Assembly: GCA_964424195.1 (NCBI GenBank)
Contig: CAYRHT010000001.1
Coordinates: 6,102-70,101, forward strand
Direction of reading: 5' to 3'
Source: an uncultured Gammaproteobacteria bacterium
Lineage (GTDB): Bacteria; Patescibacteriota; Patescibacteriia; UBA1558; S5-K13
Length of the DNA stretch: 64,000 nt
The stretch's first letter is position 1. Each line of letters starts with the position of its first letter. The notes under the pieces are model-generated. The model was not told where the DNA came from, did not search any database, and saw nothing but the letters and a program-made list of their open reading frames with translations. This document shows, piece by piece, positions 1 to 44,836 of the stretch. The position numbers and the translations under genes are program-made.

Positions 1-445
1 TTGCCACTCTCTGTTTTTCGCCTCCACTTAAATTATCAGCAGTTTCATCTATTTTATGTTTGAGCCCGACAAGCTCAACTATATTTTTAATCATCTCTTT
101 TTTATTTTCTTTTTTTATTTCGTTTCTGGGGTGAATTGCCAAATAAACATTATCAGAAACAGAAAGCGAAGGAATAATTTTAAAGTCTTGAAAAACAATA
201 CCGATATTCAAAAGGCGAAAACTGGCTAATTTTTCTTCATCAAAATCAGTAATATCTTGCCCCTCAAAAAAAATCTTTCCTTCGTCTGGTTTGACTAATC
301 CTGACAAAATAGAAAGCAGGGTAGTTTTTCCAGTTCCAGATTTTCCGATAATACTTACAAACTCTTTTTCTTTAATAAAAAAATCAAGATTTTTTAAAAT
401 TTGTTGCTTGCCGTATTTTTTAGATATTGATTGCAATTTAAGCAT
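1..445 (-). CDS. ABC transporter ATP-binding protein (N-terminal part; C-terminus cut by the window edge)
   Basis: The minus-strand translation starts MLKLQSISKKYGKQQILKNLDFFIKEKEFVSIIGKSGTGKTTLLSILSG..., which carries a Walker A motif (GKSGTGKTT). The reading frame stays open to position 1. The + strand ORF 291..479 is antisense to it. Confidence 0.75.
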   Translation of the reverse strand, partial: MLKLQSISKKYGKQQILKNLDFFIKEKEFVSIIGKSGTGKTTLLSILSGLVKPDEGKIFFEGQDITDFDEEKLASFRLLNIGIVFQDFKIIPSLSVSDNVYLAIHPRNEIKKENKKEMIKNIVELVGLKHKIDETADNLSGGEKQRVA

Positions 446-446
446 A

Positions 447-722
447 TTATTTTTTATAAAGATTAATAATTCTTTTTAGATTTTTTATTTTTTCATCAGA
501 CACTTTTTTGCCAGACAAAAATTCATTCAAAACAAATCCTTCTAAAGTTTTGGATCGCAAAGTATCAAAAGATTTAGCAATGGAAGTTGTAAGTTGGGCA
601 ATTTCTCCGCAACACTTACCTTGCTCAAGATATTTTTTAAGTGTTTCAATTTGTCCCTGAATTCGGTTTAAATGATGAATATTTTTTTGTCGCCTTACTT
701 TTATATCTTCAGTGATTTTCAT
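447..722 (-). CDS. CsoR/RcnR/FrmR-family metal-sensing transcriptional repressor (DUF156)
   Basis: 91 aa. It contains the KNIHHLNRIQGQIETLKKYLEQGKCCGEIAQL region typical of CsoR-like four-helix-bundle repressors, with His and Cys metal ligands. Its stop is 2 nt from the ABC ATPase start, so the two are likely co-transcribed. Confidence 0.65.
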   Translation of the reverse strand: MKITEDIKVRRQKNIHHLNRIQGQIETLKKYLEQGKCCGEIAQLTTSIAKSFDTLRSKTLEGFVLNEFLSGKKVSDEKIKNLKRIINLYKK

Positions 723-745
723 AGTACAATTTAATTTTATAAAAT

Positions 746-762
746 ATACCCCTACCCCTATA
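746..762. promoter_or_regulatory. Poly-C/G direct-repeat candidate operator (TA-CCCC-TA-CCCC-TA) just upstream of the CsoR-like gene
   Basis: ATACCCCTACCCCTAT lies 25 bp upstream of the repressor start on the minus strand. CsoR/RcnR-type operators are G/C tracts flanked by AT-rich arms. Confidence 0.35.
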
Positions 763-975
763 TATTATAGCAAAAAAAATACGAAGTCAAATTTTATAAA
801 ATCGTTTTCGTAGCGTAGAGAAGAAAATATCTTGTTTCCTCTAAAATTTAAAAAACATTTTTTGCGTAGGTACGGAGCAAAAAATATCCGCTTATCCCCT
901 TTATAAATAAAAGAAAAAGAAATTTGAAAATTTTTTAAAACAATTGGGCGATAGCCCTAAAAAGAAAAGGAATAT

Positions 976-1120
976 TTCAGCTAACGTTTCGGCATATCTG
1001 AAGTTGCGTAGCAATTTGGGTGGAGGCTTTTGCAAAAAGCCGTAACCAGATATGCCGTGTTAGATGATGTAATTAAAAGTTTTTGTTTTGCGATAGCAAA
1101 ACATTATTTGGGGCTATTTT
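976..1120 (+). repeat. Structured intergenic repeat, copy 1: CTAAC box, 10-bp stem GGCATATCTG/CAGATATGCC, inner hairpin GGCTTTTGCAAAAAGCC, GTTAGAT box, tail ...TTTTGCGATAGCAAAA...TATTTGGGGCTATTTTTT
   Basis: Direct inspection. It shares about 80% identity with copies at 2471-2622 and 5049-5135. The outer stem is perfectly self-complementary. Confidence 0.8.
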
Positions 1121-2404
1121 TTAAATATTCGTTTTCTTCCATGTTTCTTCTGGGTCAGGCATTGCATTAAATTGGTCTACAAAATTATTGTACTGTTCTT
1201 CGGTGATGGTAATTTGTTTTGAGCCATCAGCAGAATAATAACTATATGTATTATCTGGATTTTGTTGTGCGGTTTCAATGATACGTTTTAACGGTTCTCT
1301 TTTTTCTCTATATCCAGAAGCATAATTTGCAACCCCATCAATATTATATCCATGATAATCTAAATTTCTGTCTGATTTCATTTTTTTATATTCATCTCTT
1401 TGTTGCAATGCCTGATAAAATCTTTTTGCGTCTTCTGTAGAGGCAAAATTAGCAACAAAACGGGTTGTTTCGCTGTCTGGTTTTAAATCAACTTGGTGTG
1501 TTTTTTGAACATCGAGATGTTTGAATGCGATAGGAATTTTTTCGCTTTTTGCTAATTCAAATGCTAGATCACGCAATTCTTCCATGTTATCCAGGGGGAT
1601 GTCAAAGTAAATTCTTTCTTTTCCCCATTCCAATTGACCAGATTCTTTTAATTTTTTAGCCGCCGCATTTCCATATTCATACCAAAAAACACCAATATCC
1701 GTTTCTCCATTTTTAATTTTAAAGTCCTCAAAATCTTTATCCTCCAAACCCTCATAGTTTTGTCGCGAATTTTGCTCGGGTGTTGTTAGGCTATCACCCT
1801 GAATTTCTTGTTTAGGAATGCCGAGCTCTTCACGAATGGTGTTTGCTTTTTCCTGGTCGTCAATCTTGCTCTTACTTTCTAAAACGTTAAAAGACAATCT
1901 TTGCGCTAGATTATTATAAACGCTTTTGTCTATATTTTTGGCAATATCAAAAGAGAATGGTTTTTCTGGATTATCTTTTTTAAAATCTTCATAGCTCGAT
2001 TTTAATTTTTGAAGCACAAAAGATTCTTCGGGTGATAAATCATCAATTTCTCTTTTCCCTTGAATGCACTCTGTTAAAATTTTTGCTGCATCTTTTTGAG
2101 CATCGGGAAATTTTGTTTTTTGCTCATCAGATAGACCGGAGTATTGCTGTTTTAATTTCTCATCTTTTTGTGCTTCTCGGTCTTGCTCTGCTTTTCTGAT
2201 TTCTTCTAGCGCATTTTGTCTTCTTTCTGTTTCCGATTTATTTTTAGCTTCATCAATATAAATTGGATTTTGCCAAAGCTCGTCTACTATTTCGCTCGGC
2301 ATTCCTTTATACTGCGGAGGAATAGTACTTTGTTTTTCTTCCATATTTTCTGTTGGATCAGCCTCTTGATTTAAATTGTTGTATTGTTGTTCTGGTGATT
2401 TCAT
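1121..2404 (-). CDS. Hypothetical acidic, K/E/D-rich protein (427 aa), a cassette-like ORF
   Basis: Long ORF with no recognisable motif. It is bounded on both sides by the inverted repeat GGGGCTATTTTTTAAATATTC, which overlaps the stop codon on one side and abuts the start codon on the other. Confidence 0.55.
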   Translation of the reverse strand: MKSPEQQYNNLNQEADPTENMEEKQSTIPPQYKGMPSEIVDELWQNPIYIDEAKNKSETERRQNALEEIRKAEQDREAQKDEKLKQQYSGLSDEQKTKFPDAQKDAAKILTECIQGKREIDDLSPEESFVLQKLKSSYEDFKKDNPEKPFSFDIAKNIDKSVYNNLAQRLSFNVLESKSKIDDQEKANTIREELGIPKQEIQGDSLTTPEQNSRQNYEGLEDKDFEDFKIKNGETDIGVFWYEYGNAAAKKLKESGQLEWGKERIYFDIPLDNMEELRDLAFELAKSEKIPIAFKHLDVQKTHQVDLKPDSETTRFVANFASTEDAKRFYQALQQRDEYKKMKSDRNLDYHGYNIDGVANYASGYREKREPLKRIIETAQQNPDNTYSYYSADGSKQITITEEQYNNFVDQFNAMPDPEETWKKTNI

Positions 2405-2470
2405 AAAGAATATTTAAAAAATAGCCCCAAATAATAAATTTTCGAAGAAAATTTAAAAACTTTTAATTAT

Positions 2471-2622
2471 TTCAGCTAACATTCGCGTGTATGAGAAGTT
2501 TGCGAAGCAAATTTGGGCGAAGGCTTTTGTAAAAAGCCGTAGCCTCATACACGCTGTTGTACGATGTAATGAAAAGTTTTAATTTTGCGATAGCAAAATA
2601 TTTGGGGCTATATTTTTTAATT
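2471..2622 (+). repeat. Structured intergenic repeat, copy 2: stem CGTGTATGAG/CTCATACACG, hairpin GGCTTTTGTAAAAAGCC, GTTGTAC box, tail with GCGATAGCAAAA and ATTTGGGGCTATATTTTTT
   Basis: Direct inspection. An inverted copy of the tail lies at 2405-2470, upstream of ORF 1121-2404. Confidence 0.8.
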
Positions 2623-2632
2623 TTTCCAATTT

Positions 2633-3721
2633 TTATAAATATAAATCTTTGTCTAAAAAACAAACCTTTGGTTGATTTTTTTCAAAATCCCATGAATGAA
2701 AAGAGCCACCTAAGCATTCATTCCAATAATCGCATTTTTTGCATTTTTCACAAGCAGTACGATTTTTGTCTCTAAAAAAATCAAATTTATTATTCCAAAT
2801 ATCTGAAAAAGAATCTTTTTTAATGTTTCCTTGTATAAGATTACTTTGTCTTGGAACATTCGGGCAAACAAAAATATCGCCATTATGGAGGATGCTTCCA
2901 ATATTAATTCCTGTTCCGCAGTAGAAAAAATTATTTCTTACTTCATCTTCAAAGTTATCGCCTAAAAAATGAGCGCACCCAAAGGTAATTTTTACTTTTG
3001 ATTTTTTCGCTCGCTTATTTTTCATAAATTGTAAAAATTTCGTAAATTGCTCTTTGTTAAGAAGAATGTCGTTATTACAAATAGCTCTTCCAATTGGATC
3101 TACATTTAAAAGACGCCAATCACTAATTCCTAAAGCAGAAAATGTGTCATACATTTCATCTAAAATATTAATATTATTTTTATGAACAGTTGTTGTAATT
3201 CGAAGTGGGTTTAAAAAATCAGCTTTTGCAAAAAGCCCAATAGCATTTATTGCTTTTTCATAAGCACCTTTTGTGTTGCGAAATTCATCATGAACCTCTC
3301 TGATTCCATCAATACTTATATCAATCGTTATCATGCCAGCATCTTTGGCTTTTTCAACAATTTCTTGAGTAACAAGTGAACCATTAGAAACCATTCCCCA
3401 TTGAAAACCGAGGGAATTGGCATATTTCATAACTTCAAAAAGATCTTTCCGCAAAAGAGGCTCGCCTCCTGTTATTGCTATAGTAATTTTTTTTGCATCA
3501 AAATTTTGAGCAATATCTAATAAAGCTTTTTTAATTTCTTCAGTGCTAATAACTTCAGTAAAAATATTTTCACCAGCACGACTTCCGCAGTGTTTACATT
3601 TAAAATTACAATTCAAAGTACACTCCCAAAAAAGATATTTGAGTTCATGGTTTTCTCGAAGGTACTCACGATGTGCTTGCCACATCTTTTGTCTCCCTAG
3701 TTTAAGAATTTTTTTTAGCAT
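2633..3721 (-). CDS. Radical SAM enzyme with C-terminal SPASM-type auxiliary Fe-S domain
   Basis: The CNFKCKHCGSRAG motif (CxxxCxxC) sits near the N-terminus. A Cys-rich C-terminus (CEKCKKCDYWNEC...) matches SPASM/twitch domains of peptide-modifying or anSME-like rSAM maturases. Confidence 0.75.
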   Translation of the reverse strand: MLKKILKLGRQKMWQAHREYLRENHELKYLFWECTLNCNFKCKHCGSRAGENIFTEVISTEEIKKALLDIAQNFDAKKITIAITGGEPLLRKDLFEVMKYANSLGFQWGMVSNGSLVTQEIVEKAKDAGMITIDISIDGIREVHDEFRNTKGAYEKAINAIGLFAKADFLNPLRITTTVHKNNINILDEMYDTFSALGISDWRLLNVDPIGRAICNNDILLNKEQFTKFLQFMKNKRAKKSKVKITFGCAHFLGDNFEDEVRNNFFYCGTGINIGSILHNGDIFVCPNVPRQSNLIQGNIKKDSFSDIWNNKFDFFRDKNRTACEKCKKCDYWNECLGGSFHSWDFEKNQPKVCFLDKDLYL

Positions 3722-3980
3722 TTTTTCTACTTCGTTTGATAAAAATAACTGTCCCGATAATTATAGCCAAAACAATTATTATGACCATAACAATTGGTGA
3801 AAGAATTACAGAAAGTATTCTTTCCCATAAGGTTGGCTCAGATATAAAACCAATACCATACTCCGGCATTGGCTCGATACCATAAAGCGTTTGCATTTGT
3901 GCAGACATCCCAGTCTGATTGAAAGCAAATGCCATAAATGAACCAAAAATATACAAGAATGTTTTTTTGATTTTTTTCAT
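3702..3980 (-). CDS. Small membrane-anchored peptide (92 aa) encoded immediately upstream of the rSAM-SPASM gene and overlapping it by 20 nt
   Basis: N-terminal hydrophobic signal-like segment, a central MPEYGIGFISEPTLWE segment, a C-terminal TM helix and a basic tail. Translationally coupled to the rSAM gene. Confidence 0.45.
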   Translation of the reverse strand: MKKIKKTFLYIFGSFMAFAFNQTGMSAQMQTLYGIEPMPEYGIGFISEPTLWERILSVILSPIVMVIIIVLAIIIGTVIFIKRSRKNAKKNS

Positions 3981-4007
3981 AGTTTTTTAGTTATTAATAA
4001 TAAAAAT

Positions 4008-4275
4008 TTAAAAATATAGCCCCAAATTAATTTCTGAAAGAAATTATAAAACTTTTCATTATTTCGTACAACGTCTCGGGATATGAGAAGTCCCGATGTT
4101 TTTATTTACTTTAACTTTATATTATCAAATTCCCTTCTTAAGGGGTAATTGTATTTTTAAATTATATTAGTAAATCGGGATTTGAGTGAAAGAAATATAG
4201 CGACCTTAAAACAATCTAATAGATGCTGTATTTCTAGAACCTCATATTCGGTGTTGTACGATGTAAATTTTTTAT
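4008..4275 (+). repeat. Structured intergenic repeat, copy 3 (disrupted)
   Basis: 4008-4063 is an inverted tail fragment (AAAAATATAGCCCCAAAT...). The 5' stem half CGGGATATGAG is at 4076-4090 and the 3' half CTCATATTCGG plus a GTTGTAC box is at 4240-4263. They are separated by ~145 bp of unrelated sequence, which contains another degenerate 5' half at 4187-4198. Confidence 0.6.
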
Positions 4276-4324
4276 TTTAATTTTAATCAAGCTATACTTT
4301 GTTTATCAAAAAAAAATTGATTTT

Positions 4325-4957
4325 TTATTTTTTATCTTGTTCATTTACTTCATTTAAAATATGTTTTGTAAGTTCATTTGCTCTAATTATTTTTATGTCA
4401 GGAAACATTTTTCTTAGTTCATCCACTAAAGGATATAATCTCGTATTAACTACTATTACTCCAATGTTTGCTTCCCATGCCAATCTTTCTCCATTTTGAT
4501 TACTACCTATTATTGTACCCTTTCCAATTTTATTGCCTTTAATTTTATGAAAAATAGACTTATCTTTATTTAAAGATTGATTGTATGGAGAAAGAATTAA
4601 AAATGAACCCATAGTATAACTTCTACATTGACTTGTTTTTAGCTTTCCTTTCCACCCCATTATGGTTTTATTCTGAGCAATATTTATTGCTGCTGCTAGT
4701 TGTTCAATTTCACTATTTCTAGTTATGCCATGACCCTCATATTTTTTGAGTATATCTTCAGGAAGTAAGTTGACAAATTTTGCTATAGCTTCTTTTTCAC
4801 CAAAAACTTCATCCATTTCTTCATTATCACATTGTTCATTTTGAATTCTTTCTTTATATTTTTCAAGAAGCTTAGTAGCTAATTCAAATGACTCATTGTA
4901 TGGAGCGAATTTTTGTTGTTCATTTTTATTTTGTTTTTCAAAAGAGTATTTTTCCAT
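4325..4957 (-). CDS. Hypothetical protein (210 aa)
   Basis: Long ORF. A weak HKIKGNKIGKGTIIGSNQN segment resembles, but does not strictly match, the PLD-superfamily HxK(x)4D...GSxN motif. Confidence 0.45.
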   Translation of the reverse strand: MEKYSFEKQNKNEQQKFAPYNESFELATKLLEKYKERIQNEQCDNEEMDEVFGEKEAIAKFVNLLPEDILKKYEGHGITRNSEIEQLAAAINIAQNKTIMGWKGKLKTSQCRSYTMGSFLILSPYNQSLNKDKSIFHKIKGNKIGKGTIIGSNQNGERLAWEANIGVIVVNTRLYPLVDELRKMFPDIKIIRANELTKHILNEVNEQDKK

Positions 4958-5048
4958 AATTTTAAAATTTTCTTAAAAATTAATAAAAAATCAAATTTTT
5001 TCATGTTTAATTCTACAAATTAGAATTATTATAAATAAAATTTATTTT

Positions 5049-5190
5049 GTATAACGTTCGCGGATATGAGAAGTTGCGAAGCAATTTAGGTTGAGGCTCT
5101 GCAAGAGCCGAACCTCATATCCGCTGTTAGGCGAGGGTGAGCGACCAACGGGAGCGAAAGTGCAATGTCCCCTTGAGTTGCCACCTGAAA
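5049..5190 (+). repeat. Structured intergenic repeat, copy 4: stem GCGGATATGAG/CTCATATCCGC, hairpin GGCTCTGCAAGAGCC, core GTTAGGC, followed by a unique GC-rich tail
   Basis: Direct inspection. The GTTAGGC heptamer at 5126-5132 matches the integron core-site consensus GTTRRRY. Confidence 0.75.
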
Positions 5191-5243
5191 ATTTATTCCA
5201 TTTCTTTGAATTTTGAGAAAAACATTTGTAAAATTTTTCTTAA

Positions 5244-5738
5244 CTATTGAGTAATTTCTAAAATAAGCTTTTTAAAATGTGGGTAGTAAATCCTACCCCA
5301 AATAGGATTCTTTTCAAAATAACTCACTTCATTTGTAGAAGAATTGATAGTAACGGGAATAGTGAACCCCGCCCATTTCTTACCTGATTTTAACATTTTG
5401 CAATACTCTTTTGCGTCAGGAGTGATATTGTTTGAAATTAATACTGATATTACACCAACGCCTGATTGCAAGCCTCTTGGCCAACCATTATAATTACTGC
5501 TTGCGAAAGTAAATGCTTCAGACAAATGTTTTTCTATTAAATCAATAGTTATATTTTCGTTGCCAAAATCAGAAACAACAATAAATGTGTTCAACTGTGT
5601 AGCAAACCAGCTCCATTTAAACTTTTTTTCATAACCAATCACACTTGGTTTTCCAAGTATTTTTTCATCCTTTAGAAAAATTGATTTGGAATTAAGTTTT
5701 TCCTTAATCAAGTTTATGTTCATGTTTTTATTCTCCAT
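5244..5738 (-). CDS. Hypothetical protein (164 aa), recombinase-proximal cassette-like ORF
   Basis: ORF with no recognisable motif. Confidence 0.45.
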   Translation of the reverse strand: MENKNMNINLIKEKLNSKSIFLKDEKILGKPSVIGYEKKFKWSWFATQLNTFIVVSDFGNENITIDLIEKHLSEAFTFASSNYNGWPRGLQSGVGVISVLISNNITPDAKEYCKMLKSGKKWAGFTIPVTINSSTNEVSYFEKNPIWGRIYYPHFKKLILEITQ

Positions 5739-5832
5739 AATTATTTTAGTTAAATAATAATAATAAGTTTAATTGTATATAAATCTTTTCAAAATTCAAA
5801 GTGTTGTCTTCAAATTTTCAGATGGCAATTTC

Positions 5833-5839
5833 GCCTAAC
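5833..5839 (-). promoter_or_regulatory. GTTAGGC heptamer (minus strand) 78 bp upstream of the recombinase gene, a candidate attI-like crossover core
   Basis: It is identical to the R'-like box of repeat copy 4 at 5126-5132. It lies between the divergent recombinase gene and the first cassette-like ORF. Confidence 0.3.
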
Positions 5840-5916
5840 TCCTTATATACGAAGTTATTGACTTTTAGGTTTGAATGAACTAAGTTTTAGATGATAATTA
5901 ATAACCATAAATCATT

Positions 5917-6753
5917 ATGAAAAGCGATTTAAATGGTTCAGATCTTATTCTTAGGTTTGAGCAAGAAATGAAAATTAGAAATTTTAGTCCCAGAACAATT
6001 AAGTCCTATAGCTATTATATAACAGAAATCTTAAAATATACAAGGAAAAGTGCTCGAGATATTAATTCTCAAGATTTAAAAAACTATTTAGAATATTTAG
6101 TTGATCAAAATAAGTCTGGGTCAACTTTAAATATAGCTTATAGTGCTTTAAAACTATATTTTGGGAAGATTCTTCATCGGAGATTCTTTATTTTTTTACC
6201 TAGAGCCCAAACAGAGAAGAGATTGCCCGTGGTTTTAAGTAAAAAAGAAATAAAGAGAATTTTAGAAGGTATTGTGAATAGGAAACATAAATTAATTATT
6301 AGCTTGATTTATTCTTCCGGTTTAAGAGTTTCAGAAGTGGTGAAAATTAAAGTTCAAGATTTGAATTTTGAAAATAATACTCTTTTTATTAAACAATCAA
6401 AAGGTCAGAAAGATAGAATAACAATCTTTGCTAAAAAGTTAGGGATAGAGTTGAAAAAGTATATTAAAGATGGAAATGTGCAAGGAATTCTTTTTAAGAG
6501 TAATCAAAGTAGATTGTTAACAACAAGAACAGTCCAAAAAATATTTTCTCAGGCTTTAGAGAGTGCCGGAATAAGTAAAAAAGCTTCTTGTCATTCTTTA
6601 AGGCATTCTTTTGCTACTCATTTATTAGAAAATGGTACTAATCTTCGATATATTCAAAAATTATTAGGTCATCAAAAATTAGAAACTACTCAAATATATA
6701 CTCAAGTAGCTAGTAATAAATTAAAAGATATCAAAAATCCTTTAGATTTTTAA
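5917..6753 (+). CDS. Tyrosine site-specific recombinase (Xer/phage-integrase family, 278 aa)
   Basis: The C-terminal catalytic region HSLRHSFATHLLENGTNLRYIQKLLGHQKLETTQIYTQV contains the R..H..R..Y motif set. The protein is short, similar in size to XerC/D, and lacks the extra domain seen in classical IntI. Confidence 0.85.
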   Translation: MKSDLNGSDLILRFEQEMKIRNFSPRTIKSYSYYITEILKYTRKSARDINSQDLKNYLEYLVDQNKSGSTLNIAYSALKLYFGKILHRRFFIFLPRAQTEKRLPVVLSKKEIKRILEGIVNRKHKLIISLIYSSGLRVSEVVKIKVQDLNFENNTLFIKQSKGQKDRITIFAKKLGIELKKYIKDGNVQGILFKSNQSRLLTTRTVQKIFSQALESAGISKKASCHSLRHSFATHLLENGTNLRYIQKLLGHQKLETTQIYTQVASNKLKDIKNPLDF

Positions 6754-6819
6754 GACAAAACTCTTGACTTAAACTCTTTTTTCGGTTAGTATTCTATTAC
6801 TTATAAATATACATATATT

Positions 6820-7161
6820 ATGAAAAAAGAAGATAAGAAAACTGATGATATTCTAAATATTCAACCAGGTGATATTGTCAGAGTTCATGAAACAATTAAA
6901 GAAAAAAATACTAAGGGTGAAGAAAAACAAAGAGTTCAAGTTTTTGAAGGAATTGTTTTAGCTCATAAACATGGTAAAGAAATTGGTGCTACTATTACTG
7001 TTCGAAAAGAATCTGGTGGTATTGGTGTTGAAAAAATATTTCCCTTAAATTCTCCACTGATAGAGAAAATTGAAGTAAAAGGAAAAATTAAGTCTCGAAA
7101 GTCAAAACTTTATTACCTTAGAAACTACGAGAAAAGACTTAAGAAAGTTATTAAAAAATAG
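6820..7161 (+). CDS. rplS: 50S ribosomal protein L19
   Basis: IQPGDIVRVH...QVFEGIVLAHKHG...TVRKESGGIGVEKIFPLNSPLIEKIEVK matches the bL19 family. Confidence 0.85.
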   Translation: MKKEDKKTDDILNIQPGDIVRVHETIKEKNTKGEEKQRVQVFEGIVLAHKHGKEIGATITVRKESGGIGVEKIFPLNSPLIEKIEVKGKIKSRKSKLYYLRNYEKRLKKVIKK

Positions 7162-7186
7162 TTTTTTGAAGAGAGTTTTGTTATTC

Positions 7187-7275
7187 GCCAGAGTGGCGGA
7201 ACTGGTAGACGCGCAGGCTTGAGGGGCCTGTGAGAAATTTTTCTCGTGGAGGTTCAAGTCCTCTCTCTGGCACCA
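7187..7275 (+). tRNA. tRNA-Leu(GAG), long variable arm, CCA encoded
   Basis: Hand-folded cloverleaf. Anticodon loop CTTGAGGG gives GAG. Confidence 0.75.
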
Positions 7276-7284
7276 CATTGACAA

Positions 7285-7361
7285 GGGTCCTTGGCTCAGT
7301 TGGTTAGAGCGTCTCGTTTACACCGAGAAGGTCATAGGTTCGACTCCTATAGGACCCACCA
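7285..7361 (+). tRNA. tRNA-Val(TAC)
   Basis: GGGTCCT acceptor stem, anticodon loop TTTACAC, TTCGACT T-loop, CCA encoded. Confidence 0.8.
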
Positions 7362-7376
7362 TAAATTTCCCATTAA

Positions 7377-7453
7377 GGGCCTGTAGCTCAGTTGGCTAGA
7401 GCACCTGCTTTGCAAGCAGGGGGTCAAGGGTTCGAATCCCTTCAGGTCCACCA
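7377..7453 (+). tRNA. tRNA-Ala(TGC)
   Basis: GGGCCTG acceptor stem with a G3:T70-like pair, anticodon loop TTTGCAA, CCA encoded. Confidence 0.8.
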
Positions 7454-7506
7454 AAGAGGACTTTTCATTTTGAAAGGTCTTTTTTTGTTTTAAAAGATAA
7501 ATAAAA

Positions 7507-7532
7507 AACCTGTCTTAGTGAAAAGACAGGTT
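7507..7532. terminator. Perfect hairpin AACCTGTCTT-AGTGAA-AAGACAGGTT, a bidirectional terminator candidate
   Basis: 10-bp perfect stem located between the tRNA cluster and a convergent minus-strand gene. Confidence 0.5.
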
Positions 7533-7635
7533 AAGAGTATTAATAGATTATTTTTTTTCATCTTGACGACTAGCAAGGAATCCAATGACACCGACAGTTA
7601 TGAAAAATATAGTAATAATAAATATTATAGACATT

Positions 7636-8253
7636 TTATTTTTTAAATATTTTTAAGAGTAAAATTAAAGAGAGTTGAATAATAATATTAGTAATAATCA
7701 GAGCAATAATAACTATAGCGATGTTTATTAAAAATGACCATTTAATAAAGAAGAGAATTATAAACACCCACCAGATGTTCTTTAAGTCTTGAAATGAAGG
7801 ACCAAGCATTGCTCCAACATTAAAAGATAGTAAAAGAACAATCCATCCTTGCCAAGTAATGATATTAATTTGAGATAAAATATTTAGAACTATATTGAAT
7901 ATTTCTGACCAACTGGAAATTTCATTAATTGTTAAGTAGTTAAGTAATAAATATCTATTCACCAGATAAAGGAATAAAAATCCACCCGCTATTGGTGCTA
8001 AAGAAATTAAAGCTTGGCCAATAATTGGAATTCTAGATTTAGTGTGACTAACCTGGGGTTGTTTGTGAAATATTTGAAATTTAGTAATTTTAGCACCAGT
8101 AAAAATACATAATACAGCATGAGAACTTTCATGAATAATAACTCCTAGATAGTATAACCAATGTAATACAGAGTAATTTAAATAAGAATAATTTAGATAA
8201 TTACTAAAATATCCTAAGATGCTGATGACTATAATTAATATTCCTAAATTCAT
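7636..8253 (-). CDS. Polytopic membrane protein with an HExxH motif (HESSH), a putative membrane zinc metalloprotease
   Basis: Multiple TM helices. The HESSHAVL motif sits within a hydrophobic segment. Confidence 0.5.
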   Translation of the reverse strand: MNLGILIIVISILGYFSNYLNYSYLNYSVLHWLYYLGVIIHESSHAVLCIFTGAKITKFQIFHKQPQVSHTKSRIPIIGQALISLAPIAGGFLFLYLVNRYLLLNYLTINEISSWSEIFNIVLNILSQINIITWQGWIVLLLSFNVGAMLGPSFQDLKNIWWVFIILFFIKWSFLINIAIVIIALIITNIIIQLSLILLLKIFKK

Positions 8254-8308
8254 AACGTTTGCTTGTTTGCTAAAGAGATAATATAATGAAATAAGAAGAG
8301 TTATTCAC

Positions 8309-8911
8309 TTGACTAAACTCTTATTATTTTATAACTTAAGTATACAAAAATATATGTTTAAAAAACAGGCCGGCGGAAGCCAACTTCTAGATTCTAGGGA
8401 AATATTAGAAAGTAAAATCGGACTGGGTTATGGAAATGTAGTAGCTGATTTAGGATGTGGTCCTAAAGCTTACTTTACTTTTCAATCTGCTCGAATAGTT
8501 GGAGACCGAGGAATAGTTTATGCTGTTGATATCCAGAAGCAAGTATTGTCTTCAGTAGAGAGTCATGCTAAGAATCAGAACTTAAACAATATTAAGACTG
8601 TCTGGAGTAATTTAGAAATAAGTGGAGCTACTAAAATTCAAGAGAGTTCTTTAGACTTAGCAATATTAAATAATGTCTTGTTTCAATCAGCAGATATGCC
8701 AGAGATGATTAAGGAAGCTGTTAGATTAACTAAAGCTGGCGGTAGATTATTAGTTATAGATTGGAAGAGTACTGGAGCTCCTCTGGGACCTAAAGTGGAT
8801 TTAAAAGTAAATCCAGAAAAAGTTAAAGAACTTGCTGAAGTATTTGGATTAAAGCTAGAAGAAGAGTTTGAAGCTGGACAGTATCACTTTGGTTTAATTT
8901 TTAGAAAGTAA
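8309..8911 (+). CDS. Class I SAM-dependent methyltransferase
   Basis: The VADLGCGPKAY segment matches motif I (GxGxG-like), and an acidic residue follows the next beta strand (VYAVDIQ). Confidence 0.65.
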   Translation: MTKLLLFYNLSIQKYMFKKQAGGSQLLDSREILESKIGLGYGNVVADLGCGPKAYFTFQSARIVGDRGIVYAVDIQKQVLSSVESHAKNQNLNNIKTVWSNLEISGATKIQESSLDLAILNNVLFQSADMPEMIKEAVRLTKAGGRLLVIDWKSTGAPLGPKVDLKVNPEKVKELAEVFGLKLEEEFEAGQYHFGLIFRK

Positions 8912-8924
8912 TTATATAAATAAA

Positions 8925-9338
8925 ATGTTGTTATCACTCGTTAATTTTCAGTATCTTTTTGATGCTTATCCTCCTCGAATAAAACAGGGGACTTTTTTAA
9001 CTATTATAATCTTAGCTTTAGTTTTTTTGGCTATTGCTATTGTATTAAAGTATTTGCTATCTAGAAAAACTAAATTTAAAGAAGGGTTAGATAAATATCA
9101 AAAAGAATTCTATATTAAGTTAATTAATATATTATTCACTAGTGGTTTAATTAGTCTATTTTTAATTACTTTTAGAAAATTAAGAGTTCCTTACTTTCAA
9201 ATTAGATTTGTTTTAATACTCTGGGGAGGTATTATTGTTATTTGGTTTATTACTATTCTTCAATATCAACTAACTAAAGTTCCAGAATTAAGAGAACAGG
9301 GTAAGAAAAGAAGAGAATACGAGAAGTATCTGAAATAG
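8925..9338 (+). CDS. Hypothetical membrane protein
   Basis: Three or four predicted TM helices and a basic C-terminus. Confidence 0.4.
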   Translation: MLLSLVNFQYLFDAYPPRIKQGTFLTIIILALVFLAIAIVLKYLLSRKTKFKEGLDKYQKEFYIKLINILFTSGLISLFLITFRKLRVPYFQIRFVLILWGGIIVIWFITILQYQLTKVPELREQGKKRREYEKYLK

Positions 9339-14236: not shown

Positions 14237-14926
14237 ATGAATATTGGTGGATTACAAAAATTTTCAATGATAGACTATCCAAATAAATTGGCTGCTATTG
14301 TTTTTACTTTGGGCTGTAATTTTCGTTGTGGTTATTGTCATAATCCAGAATTAGTATTACCAGAGAAATTTAATCCTAGTTTAGATGAAGAAAAGATTTT
14401 GGAATTTTTTAAAACTAGAGTTGGAAAATTAGATGCAATTTCAATTACCGGAGGAGAACCAACAATGCAAAAAGATTTAACTCAGTTTATGAAAAAGATT
14501 AAGGACCTAGGTTTTTTAATTAAGCTCGATACTAATGGAACTGATCCTAAAACGTTAAAAGAGATAATTGATAATAAGTTAGTAGATTATATTGCCATGG
14601 ACATCAAAGCTCCCTTTGAAAAATATGAAGAAGTGATTAAGACCAAAGTTGATTTAGAAGATATTAAAAAAAGCATTAAGATGATAATGAGTTCAAAGAT
14701 AGAATATGAATTTAGAACTACGATTGTGAAGTCTCAACTTAGTGTTAAAGATTTAATGGGCATTGGGAAATTAATTAAAGGGGCTAATATTTATTATCTC
14801 CAAAAATTTGTTTCTTCTAAAGCTAATGATGATGAATTCTTAAAAAAGAAAACTTATTCTGACGAAGAATTTGAAGAGATTAGAAAAGATATTTTAAAGT
14901 ATGTGAAAAATTGTAAGATTAGATAA
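14237..14926 (+). CDS. nrdG: Anaerobic RNR-activating radical SAM protein
   Basis: CNFRCGYCHNPE radical SAM motif. The gene sits immediately downstream of nrdD. Confidence 0.85.
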   Translation: MNIGGLQKFSMIDYPNKLAAIVFTLGCNFRCGYCHNPELVLPEKFNPSLDEEKILEFFKTRVGKLDAISITGGEPTMQKDLTQFMKKIKDLGFLIKLDTNGTDPKTLKEIIDNKLVDYIAMDIKAPFEKYEEVIKTKVDLEDIKKSIKMIMSSKIEYEFRTTIVKSQLSVKDLMGIGKLIKGANIYYLQKFVSSKANDDEFLKKKTYSDEEFEEIRKDILKYVKNCKIR

Positions 14927-20043: not shown

Positions 20044-20221
20044 TATATCTACCTGTTGATAAATATAAAAAATCGCTTATGTTTTTATAGTTTATTTCTC
20101 AGGTTGAAAATATAAATTCGTTTTTTGACAATTAAATAGTGATAGAAACACATGCGTCTTATATTTATTTATAAGATTCAATTCTAATTTTTTGAATATT
20201 TTTTATAAAAAATATTCCATT

Positions 20222-21713
<1,492 letters not shown>

Positions 21714-21918: not shown

Positions 21919-21995
21919 GGGCGCATAGCTCAGTTGGTTAGAGCGCTACACTGATAATGTAGAGGTCCCAAGTTCAACTCTTGGTGCGCCCACCA
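21919..21995 (+). tRNA. tRNA-Ile(GAT)
   Basis: Anticodon loop CTGATAA. In the ITS position downstream of 16S. Confidence 0.85.
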
Positions 21996-22020
21996 ATAGT
22001 AGATAAGTTTATTATATTAT

Positions 22021-22095
22021 GCCGCGGTAGCTCAGTGGTAGAGCAGAGGATTGAAAATCCTCGTGTCGGTGGTTCAATTCCGCCCCGCGGCACCA
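22021..22095 (+). tRNA. tRNA-Phe(GAA)
   Basis: GCCGCGG acceptor, anticodon loop TTGAAAA, CCA encoded. Confidence 0.85.
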
Positions 22096-22102
22096 AATAT
22101 TT

Positions 22103-22179
22103 CGGGGTGTGGCGCAGTTGGCTAGCGCGCGTCGTTTGGGACGATGAGGTCGGAGGTTCGAGTCCTCTCACCCCGACCA
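22103..22179 (+). tRNA. tRNA-Pro(TGG)
   Basis: CGGGGTG acceptor, anticodon loop TTTGGGA, CCA encoded. Confidence 0.8.
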
Positions 22180-44760: not shown

Positions 44761-44836
44761 GGGTGTGTAGCTCAGGGGTTAGAGCGCGACTCTTATAAAG
44801 TCGAGGTCGGTGGTTCAATTCCACCCACACCTACCA
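44761..44836 (+). tRNA. tRNA with UAU anticodon (tRNA-Ile(TAT)-like)
   Basis: GGGTGTG acceptor, perfect anticodon stem CGACT/AGTCG with loop CTTATAA, TTCAATT T-loop, CCA encoded. Confidence 0.65.

Follow-up and report, generated by a model that had tools for sequence, protein, structure and literature searches.

A probable integron-like gene-cassette array at a dif-like site beside a small tyrosine recombinase in Patescibacteria

What kind of recombination system lines up single genes in one direction, separates them by long palindromes and places them next to a small tyrosine recombinase? We addressed this question for a 64-kb stretch of DNA (the window, meaning the whole stretch analysed), which is part of a 952-kb contig. 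The window has a GC content of 30%, and the closest relatives of its proteins are found in metagenome bins of Patescibacteria, the Candidate Phyla Radiation (CPR). Between positions 723 and 5916 every substantial open reading frame (ORF) lies on the minus strand, with four long imperfect palindromes between them, and a divergent recombinase gene follows. An earlier note on this DNA had proposed integron architecture. Our analysis bears this out: there is an attI-like point by the divergent recombinase gene, the cassettes run one way, and the palindromes have the form RYYYAAC...GTTRRRY with a predicted crossover at G|TT. The locus is probably the recombinase-proximal part of an array of gene cassettes on the chromosome, functioning in the manner of an integron. 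The best reading of the sequence is a widespread, apparently undescribed integron analogue on an Xer/dif-like chassis. The features that carry this reading are as follows (scores are from a covariance model, CM).

974-1070, plus strand: attC-like site 1 (CM 108.1 bits, E 9e-25)
2469-2567, plus strand: attC-like site 2 (CM 91.6 bits)
4061-4264, plus strand: attC-like site 3, long form (CM 36.8 bits, E 1e-6)
5044-5138, plus strand: attC-like site 4 (CM 74.2 bits, E 4e-16)
5828-5855, minus strand: attI-like, dif-like 28-mer of 11-6-11 geometry, with left arm ACTTCGTATAT at 5855-5845, spacer AAGGAG at 5844-5839 and right arm TTAGGCGAAAT at 5838-5828
5917-6753, plus strand: tyrosine recombinase of 278 amino acids (aa), divergent from the array (PF00589 Phage_integrase, PF13495 SAM-like)

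The covariance model was built on 20 copies of the repeat, 18 of them from other contigs. All four matches are antisense to the ORFs, on the plus strand, with one ORF block ahead of each. They fall at the same four places where repeats had been noted before (976-1120, 2471-2622, 4008-4275 and 5049-5190); therefore those coordinates and the ORFs between them are correct, as an ORF check also showed. No further CM match at E<=1 was detected in the 64-kb window, and blastn-short found no other copy either. Rfam, searched at permissive thresholds, has no family that matches the repeats; it holds no attC family that could act as positive control. The array does not stop at 780, where the earlier note had set its limit, as positions 1-984 belong to a fifth cassette of 4.2 kb. 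The full array in the source contig comprises nine CM sites and ~14.4 kb, continuing past the 5' end of the window, and beyond its distal end the genes have the opposite orientation. The recombinase-proximal 5.8 kb of it falls inside the window. A promoter scan (37 sites vs 34 expected) was uninformative at 30% GC, and so was a terminator scan.

Read in the direction of the ORFs, the sites have the form ACATC-RYYY-AAC-A-[L'' NNNN-RTAT-SNG]-loop-[L' CNS-ATAY-NNNN]-NNAC-G|TT-RRRY-GAAAT, and the YTAAC and GTTR boxes described previously are present. The inner L stem covaries: among the 20 copies, seven of its 11 pairs show compensatory changes on both sides and 96% of cells are paired, compared with 20-51% in slid controls whose partner was moved by 1-3 columns. 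The stem had been described as different between copies but always perfectly paired. The seven compensatory pairs support the first part; the second fails at site 3, which has a G-T pair and a mismatch and whose two arms come from different arm families. Two asymmetries are kept in all copies, namely ACATC opposite GAAAT, which leaves two mismatches, and three additional spacer bases in one arm. The loop contains the conserved unpaired motifs GAAGT and ATTTGGGTGRAG and one or two small hairpins, often of the GCGAAGC/GCGTAGC type. Core sites measure ~85-200 nt, and the palindromes run 30-75 nt past the boxes to reach the ORFs (I2, 1103-1133/2405-2435, 97%; I4, 2600-2625/4002-4027, 96%). At site 2 the whole intergenic region, 2405-2632, folds as a ~200-nt cruciform.

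Some sites carry additional sequence. The loop of site 3 holds a conserved ~92-nt insert (~4095-4190) that recurs four times in the loops of the related locus L005 (851-942, 4867-4958, 5841-5932 and 7375-7466) and is also seen in L142 (~14250-14400). Only a subset of sites has the insert, which lies within their first loop hairpin (CCCGAT...ATCGGG), has an internal covarying hairpin (CCCTT/AAGGG, TACCTT/AAGGTA) and includes a promoter-like pair at 4190-4161 directed at the downstream cassette. Site 4 has a GC-rich hairpin of ~44 nt, GGGTGAGCGACCAACGGGAGCGAAAGTGCAATGTCCCCTTGA, inserted in its outer arm (5135-5180), which the corresponding arm at the beginning of cassette 1 (5828-5809) lacks. 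L114 663-798 is 93% identical to window positions 5044-5179. In L005, small ORFs of 66-195 aa lie between L'' and L' (1644-2249, 6723-7232, 8168-8769, 8890-9266, 2366-3056 and 3584-4091). Three of these in-loop ORFs run opposite to the array, and each is then followed by an 'empty' R-R unit with a terminator-like hairpin.

Where do cassettes enter? The 28-mer is unique in the window, and its two arms are inverted-identical at 7/11 positions. The window and three relatives, whose recombinases are 90% (L005), 78% (L006) and 73% (L009) identical to the window's, share the sequence upstream of the recombinase as far as AGTCAAYAASTTCGTATATAAGRAG|TT. After G|TT they diverge, continuing as AGGCGAAAT, ATGTGAAAT, CAGCGAAAT and GTGCGAAAT. 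The same conserved-then-divergent pattern is found in 11 of 14 contigs from a metagenome scan, with recombinases 41-58% identical; the left arm has diverged in L043, L068 and L123. It is found again at three homologues picked by protein similarity only (P0104, P0034 and P0079), giving 18 loci in all. The conserved stretch ends TTCGYATAT-NNNNAG|TT, and the right arms vary (AGGC, ATGT, CAGC, GTGC and others). Likewise, megablast homology between the window genome and L005 is limited to 5828-6752, that is the recombinase gene and the 28-mer, and stops at 5828. In the window this pattern points to a crossover at G|TT between 5839 and 5838. Comparison of the right arm with the distal arm of the first cassette itself gave a perfect match in five of six loci; the sixth has a single mismatch. 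The spacer, which remains joined to the left arm, is 6 nt long in attI vs 9 nt at array junctions; such a difference in length between the partners is not easily reconciled with an exchange of two strands.

The left arm of the 28-mer is abutted by a -35-like TTGACT (5858-5863), likely belonging to the recombinase promoter in region 5856-5916. In L140 TTGATT-17-TAAAAT abuts the left arm in the same way, and L135 has an equivalent. Binding of the recombinase at the 28-mer could therefore repress its own transcription.

With the crossover placed at G|TT, each unit would read TT-RRRY...ORF...site-G, which is the signature of an integron cassette. The window is divided into the following units.

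5055-5838, minus strand: cassette 1, 784 bp, with ORF 5244-5738 (164 aa) and its own 3' site
4072-5054, minus strand: cassette 2, 983 bp, with ORF 4325-4957 (210 aa, no family)
2480-4071, minus strand: cassette 3, 1592 bp, with two genes
3702-3980, minus strand: 92-aa protein with a long hydrophobic stretch, in cassette 3
2633-3721, minus strand: radical SAM/SPASM enzyme, in cassette 3 (PF04055, PF13186)
985-2479, minus strand: cassette 4, 1495 bp, with ORF 1121-2404 (427 aa, no family)
1-984, minus strand: proximal part of cassette 5, ~4.2 kb, the rest lying off the window
447-722, minus strand: CsoR-like repressor, in cassette 5 (PF02583)
~780-984, minus strand: conserved non-coding leader of cassette 5, which also holds the start of an ABC-transporter operon

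All cassettes in the window obey an own-end rule, in which the start of a cassette matches its own far end. Cassette 1 starts with GTTAGGCGA (5839-5831, minus strand), complementary to its own distal arm TCGCCTAAC; plus-strand positions 5126-5134 read GTTAGGCGA. The ends of cassette 2 are inverted copies (I20, 4310-4329/4982-5001, 95%). In cassettes 3 and 4 the match to the far end of the same cassette is 26-70 nt long, the best stretches being 96-97% complementary: in cassette 3, 4072-4002 is complementary to 2556-2625 (I1/I4), and in cassette 4, 1103-1133 to 2405-2435 (I2, 97%). Cassette 5 starts with GTTAGCTGAAAT (985-974, minus strand), which pairs with its own distal arm ACATCAGCTAAC at L142 13804; the complementarity extends over ~75 nt, and this far end lies 4 kb off, beyond the window. 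Across ~128 contigs, 44/72 tetranucleotides after G|TT are the reverse complement of the distal arm of the same cassette, whereas only 14/110 match the arm physically next to them, with a random expectation of 6%. Furthermore, L005 contains a duplicated cassette (812-1682 = 7336-8207, 98% over 872 nt) whose two boundaries are both at the AAC/GTT triplet, with different flanking boxes.

Folding with DNA parameters revealed a strand bias. The antisense (bottom) strand is the more stable one in 75 of 81 distinct hairpins (Wilcoxon p 6e-14), with a mean of -25.5 vs -22.8 kcal/mol, and G-T pairs number 211 in bottom-strand folds vs 59. The window follows this trend at 940-1125, which holds site 1 (-35.9 on the plus vs -28.5 kcal/mol on the minus strand), at 2405-2632, the intergenic region of site 2 (-55.2 vs -51.2), and at 4958-5243, which holds site 4 (-44.9 vs -42.0). 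Duplex DNA has no such asymmetry and the mRNA is the weaker strand, which argues that selection acts on the single-stranded bottom strand, as it does at integron attC sites. The folded R''-L'' arm is colinear with the 28-mer (CNSATAY + 6 nt + TT-RRRY-GATGT vs CGYATAT + 6 nt + TT-RRRY-GAAAT), so the hairpin would mimic the entry site, the other arm being three bases longer.

Is this a peculiarity of one genome? The motif ATTTCNNNNAACRTNNNNNNRTATSNGAAG occurs on at least 118 metagenome contigs. None of them has arms on both strands, both arm types being restricted to one strand, so no inversions are seen. At 33 further loci all CM matches are on the array side and on the strand antisense to the cassettes (55/55 and 35/35). 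Scattered repeats, which the earlier note had named as evidence against its proposal, were not found: there are none outside the array in the window, and 90/90 matches elsewhere are on the array side and strand. Wherever a recombinase homologue (41-58% identical) can be placed on a pattern-derived contig, its gene is divergent and adjacent to the array. P0104, P0034 and P0079, which were selected independently of the repeats, all have site and array, as does every relative with sufficient upstream sequence (37-90% identical), and the linkage of repeat and recombinase holds down to 37% pairwise recombinase identity. Identical gene content in related strains would also have counted against the proposal, but arrays differ even where the recombinases are 90% identical, those of the window and L005 being unrelated. 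L005 and L006 have a common right flank and different arrays. Judging from these loci, the system is family-wide in CPR and not a single oddity.

Several candidate cases were examined and discarded. L023 and L123 have an ORF in common (94% identical), but the end boxes differ (AGTT vs GTGC), which does not make a clean whole-cassette transfer. A 780-nt indel between L111 and L119, considered as a cassette gain or loss, ends inside a cassette at ATATTTTT microhomology and not at G|TT. L009/L010 and L011, whose recombinases are identical, seemed to differ in their cassettes; the DNA is one and the same, and only the gene calls differ. Pattern matches on the viral contigs L131-L133 gave no CM match and were taken as chance.

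We then considered the enzyme. The recombinase had been called Xer-like, and for the NCBIfam models this holds: NF040815 (recomb_XerA_Arch, XerA) gives 240.6 bits, over its cutoff of 220, whereas the integron integrase model TIGR02249 gives 208 bits in two stretches, under its cutoff of 265. The sequence itself is IntI-like, and the best PDB match is Vibrio IntI4 (2A3V, 156 bits), with archaeal XerA at 141 and 137 bits and XerD at 95. The recombinase does not cluster with chromosomal XerC/D, a placement that the earlier note had listed as contrary evidence; scores are 241 for XerA and 208 for IntI vs 186 for XerD and 183 for XerC, the last two far under their cutoffs. Residues 7-183 and 204-276 align to IntI4 2-181 and 245-317, and the 63 residues of IntI4 182-244 face 20 residues of the recombinase. 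This break is exactly at the IntI-specific additional domain (the I2 helix around patch III), which the recombinase lacks. The description of a divergent 278-aa enzyme without the IntI-specific insertion is therefore accurate, with ~43 aa of IntI4 unmatched. The 19 array-linked homologues are 37-90% identical and at most about 310 aa as extracted, some ends being over-extended; gene calls, where present, give 277-280 aa. In nine displayed alignment rows of these 19, the catalytic motifs are kept and no insertion is present at the IntI-domain position. In total, 6963 homologues were retrieved at E<=1e-30, with 55-60% identity across CPR classes. A search of the genome contigs with the recombinase protein returned only an unrelated Desulfobacterales integrase (L012).

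These features suggest the following mechanism. The 278-aa recombinase would bind the 28-bp dif-like site just upstream of its own gene. The palindrome downstream of the ORF or ORFs of a cassette would fold to a hairpin when the antisense strand is single-stranded and thereby mimic the 28-bp site. The outer R box (TT-RRRY-GATGT paired with ATTTC-YYYR-AA) would act as right arm and the inner L box (CNSATAY) as left arm, and one side of the spacer would be longer by three bases. Cleavage by tyrosine recombinases takes place at the 5' ends of the spacer; since the junction is at the right-arm border, the bottom strand alone would be exchanged. A single strand would be transferred at the border of spacer and right arm, G|TT on top and AA|C at the bottom. 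The spacers of the partners differ in sequence and in length (6 vs 9 nt), so that a second exchange would be disfavoured and replication would resolve the intermediate. New cassettes would consequently enter beside the recombinase, each beginning with its own right arm and ending with the remainder of its own site.

How far does this reach? We lean slightly towards a lineage-wide CPR gene-capture system, in which an IntI-related enzyme without I2 inserts single-stranded hairpins at a dif-like site. Such a system would be an intermediate between Xer/dif and integrons, or a parallel to them, and a main route by which accessory and defence genes move in these reduced genomes. Several observations weigh against the integron-like reading. 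Twenty of 110 hairpins (~18%) span >500 nt, with loops of 500-1600 nt and some whole ORFs inside them; they are therefore awkward for a folding model and resemble alternating double-stranded modules. The enzyme has no IntI insertion; published work describes the I2 helix as indispensable to integrons and as the novelty through which recombination of single strands became possible (PMC8138268, PMC7790495). Own ends match in 61% of cases and not in all, a figure probably lowered in part by arms that the regular expressions missed. No whole cassette with identical ends was found shared between two different genomes, and no circular cassette, excision junction or recombination event was seen. The system may be active at present, but contigs with a 100% identical recombinase all carry the same array (one population).

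An alternative that we regard as possible though rather unlikely is that the recombinase is a housekeeping Xer and the 28-mer the chromosomal dif. The cassettes would then be hitch-hikers, like integrative mobile elements exploiting Xer (IMEX; compare CTX phage at Vibrio dif), the chemistry would be unchanged and only the primary role of the enzyme would differ. The XerA score above cutoff is in line with this, and so are the abundance and conservation of the family in CPR. The recombinase gene is ~1.5 kb from ftsK in L005-L007. Furthermore, the right arm of L005, TTATGTGAAAT, matches the XerD arm of E. coli, TTATGTTAAAT, at 10/11 positions. The 28-mer has the 11-6-11 geometry of dif (definition in PMC2958812), and the 'Cand' subgroup has been treated as Xer-related (PMC8138268). 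Chromosomal position speaks against it. GC skew changes at ~6 kb of the window, which was considered as an origin of replication and rejected: the skew is positive again past the array (+0.24 beyond its distal end, +0.19 on the recombinase side), so the switch reflects the inverted array, whose cassettes lie head-on to the flanking genes. Provided that skew is a marker of the leading strand, the strand that folds would be on the lagging-strand template. In the source of the window, L005, L009 and L140, the two flanks agree in gene orientation and in their positive skew (0.15-0.25), an indicative result from 10-20 kb viewed per genome. The 28-mer is therefore not at an origin- or terminus-type switch, and the terminus-region location expected of dif was not found in these four genomes. 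Moreover, gene and site form a module that occupies different chromosomal contexts among close relatives, and the best solved relative is IntI4 and not XerD.

It is improbable that the array is instead a chain of double-stranded 'dif modules', as on Acinetobacter plasmids, with R-flanked and L-flanked intervals alternating through ordinary double-strand Xer recombination. Arrays of dif modules are documented (PMC7399989, PMC11705084, PMC12907356), and the two kinds of interval do formally alternate here. L005 has ORFs in both kinds and three 'empty' R modules, and inverted junctions have 6-nt spacers like attI. Duplex recombination, however, leaves the asymmetry in folding and G-T pairs (75/81; 211 vs 59) unexplained. 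It also does not account for the conserved asymmetries of the arms (ACATC vs GAAAT; spacers of 6 vs 9 nt), for partner spacers that are unlike in sequence and length, or for breakpoints at the right-arm border only. Inversions are lacking, as arms never occur on both strands of one contig.

That the repeats are palindromes like repetitive extragenic palindromes (REP) or miniature inverted-repeat transposable elements (MITE), terminators or RNA elements, next to the recombinase by chance, is very improbable and, on the sequence evidence, largely refuted: they are intergenic, palindromic and typical of AT-rich genomes, some hold terminator-like hairpins and Rfam offers no attC positive control, but the other 58 kb of the window have zero copies, 90/90 matches elsewhere are on the array side and strand, the link to the recombinase persists to 37% pairwise identity, the favoured folding strand is antisense to the mRNAs, and neither the 28-mer breakpoint nor the own-end rule is expected of REPs or terminators.

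What do the cassettes of this presumed integron-like array carry? The 164-aa ORF of cassette 1 has no Pfam, NCBIfam or PADLOC match. The radical SAM/SPASM product of cassette 3 scores 301 bits against TIGR04133 'rSAM_w_lipo', under the cutoff of 425. Past the 5' end of the window the cargo includes the rest of the CsoR-ABC operon (cassette 5), a Cys-rich 91-aa protein, two ORFans, a DUF4395 protein and a GmrSD-type enzyme (PADLOC Orf5/mREase_IV). Other loci carry NUDIX, DUF218, cupin, methyltransferases, M48 peptidase, DKNYY and a GIY-YIG/DUF4357 protein, and one 5.9-kb cassette encodes T5orf172, a methyltransferase, a ResIII helicase and an SLFN/AlbA_2 protein.

Homologues of the 427-aa protein of cassette 4 were not found in another intact array. 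Those 75-85% identical are in L146 (9700-11440), as an ordinary repeat-free gene flanked by tRNA genes and housekeeping genes, and in L147 (1-1355), beside a decayed site (ATCTAAT for ATCTAAC); these settings hint at cassette birth or decay. The ~190-nt leader of cassette 5 has the motifs GGGCTATCGCCC ... AAAGGGGTATAAGG ... CGCTACGAAAACGAT ... AAGGGGAAAAC (780-984, minus strand) and a promoter-like TTGACT...TATAAT pair at 790-762, with no Rfam match. It occurs also in L006 (~6430-6620), L123 (~1100-1340), L142 (14409-14620), L065, L082 and L140/L141. The leader opens several large cassettes, namely that of the CsoR-ABC operon, the GmrSD cassette and the L006 cassette with T5orf172, methyltransferase, helicase and SLFN; it is possibly a cassette-borne promoter or regulatory leader.

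Elsewhere in the window, genes for tRNA-Leu/Val/Ala lie at 7187-7453. A second assembly of the same population (ERZ27250245; L002/L143) is identical to the end of tRNA-Ala and diverges from ~7450, where a 132-aa ORF, TrmB, a 1582-aa Peptidase_S74 protein and Fic replace the window genes; this has the appearance of a strain-specific island beside the tRNA cluster. A tRNA-Ile at 44761-44836, adjoining a tRNA-Val, has the anticodon TAT (UAU). This anticodon is unusual in bacteria, where AUA is normally read by a tRNA with a modified CAU. The 16S rRNA gene (20220-21712) is followed by tRNA-Ile(GAT), tRNA-Phe and tRNA-Pro (21919-22179). No 23S or 5S gene was detected in the 64 kb, therefore the rRNA genes appear to be unlinked.

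According to the current view, acquisition of the I2 helix let integron integrases recombine single-stranded attC hairpins (PMC4792948, PMC7790495). If the integron-like reading is true, a cassette system without I2 at a dif-like site would be a testable model for the origin of integrons from Xer/dif, and surveys based on the IntI domain would overlook an entire class of cassette platforms. Detection pipelines and integron surveys rely on this domain as the defining mark of IntI and of integrons; CPR are not mentioned in the surveys (PMC9668308, PMC9024848), and a classification of tyrosine recombinases treats the CPR enzymes only as Xer-related (PMC8138268). No prior description of this system was found in the literature searched, which covers few subscription journals. 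The system would also offer a mechanism of gene gain in CPR, whose small genomes and episymbiosis leave accessory gene flow poorly understood; the cargo seen includes a GmrSD-type restriction enzyme, a four-gene restriction/helicase block, a radical SAM enzyme, an ABC operon and many ORFans. Compact conserved sites and a small enzyme could be of interest to builders of recombination tools.

How does the system compare with those already known? Archaeal XerA and the 'Cand' subgroup (PMC8138268) share size and domain layout with the recombinase, and the XerA model scores above cutoff. XerA, however, acts at a terminus dif site that does not adjoin its gene (PMC2958812), and no cassette arrays are described for XerA or Cand in the literature searched. 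The pdif modules of Acinetobacter are likewise gene modules between Xer-type sites of alternating orientation, with internal arms that travel along. They differ from the CPR arrays, where the evidence is for a folded substrate of single-stranded DNA, a fixed polarity, unequal spacers and an entry site of their own beside the recombinase gene.

With Xer/dif and its IMEX and CTX phage elements the system has in common a small recombinase of the Xer/IntI group without an arm-binding domain and a 28-bp 11-6-11 site. The folded single-stranded attP of CTX phage is also a hairpin that mimics the site with a bulged spacer, the junction fits single-strand exchange with replicative resolution, and elements accumulate in tandem at the site. 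In contrast, the CPR units are single genes or small operons without phage functions, their junctions keep foldable sites, and the site adjoins the recombinase gene, the only one at the locus, away from a skew switch.

The IntI-domain test failed, so the system is not an integron in the strict sense, and IntegronFinder-type criteria would not call it. It differs from integrons in its CPR hosts, in arrays that are head-on to the flanking genes and in an attI that is a dif-like 11-6-11 site. Its sites are longer, with internal motifs (GAAGT, ATTTGGGTGRAG, GCGAAGC-type mini-hairpins), and outer extensions, specific to the cassette, add up to 75 nt; in some sites the loop contains ORFs. The likeness to integrons, above all to sedentary chromosomal ones such as the Vibrio cholerae superintegron, lies in the layout. 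The recombinase diverges from a one-directional array, the insertion point is by its gene, and the predicted crossover is at the G|TT of GTTRRRY. Cassettes end in an imperfect RYYYAAC...GTTRRRY palindrome, and their first bases pair with their own distal box. The ORF-antisense strand folds better, with unpaired bases giving polarity, the cargo is mainly ORFans with defence and accessory genes, and the best solved relative of the recombinase is the integron integrase IntI4.

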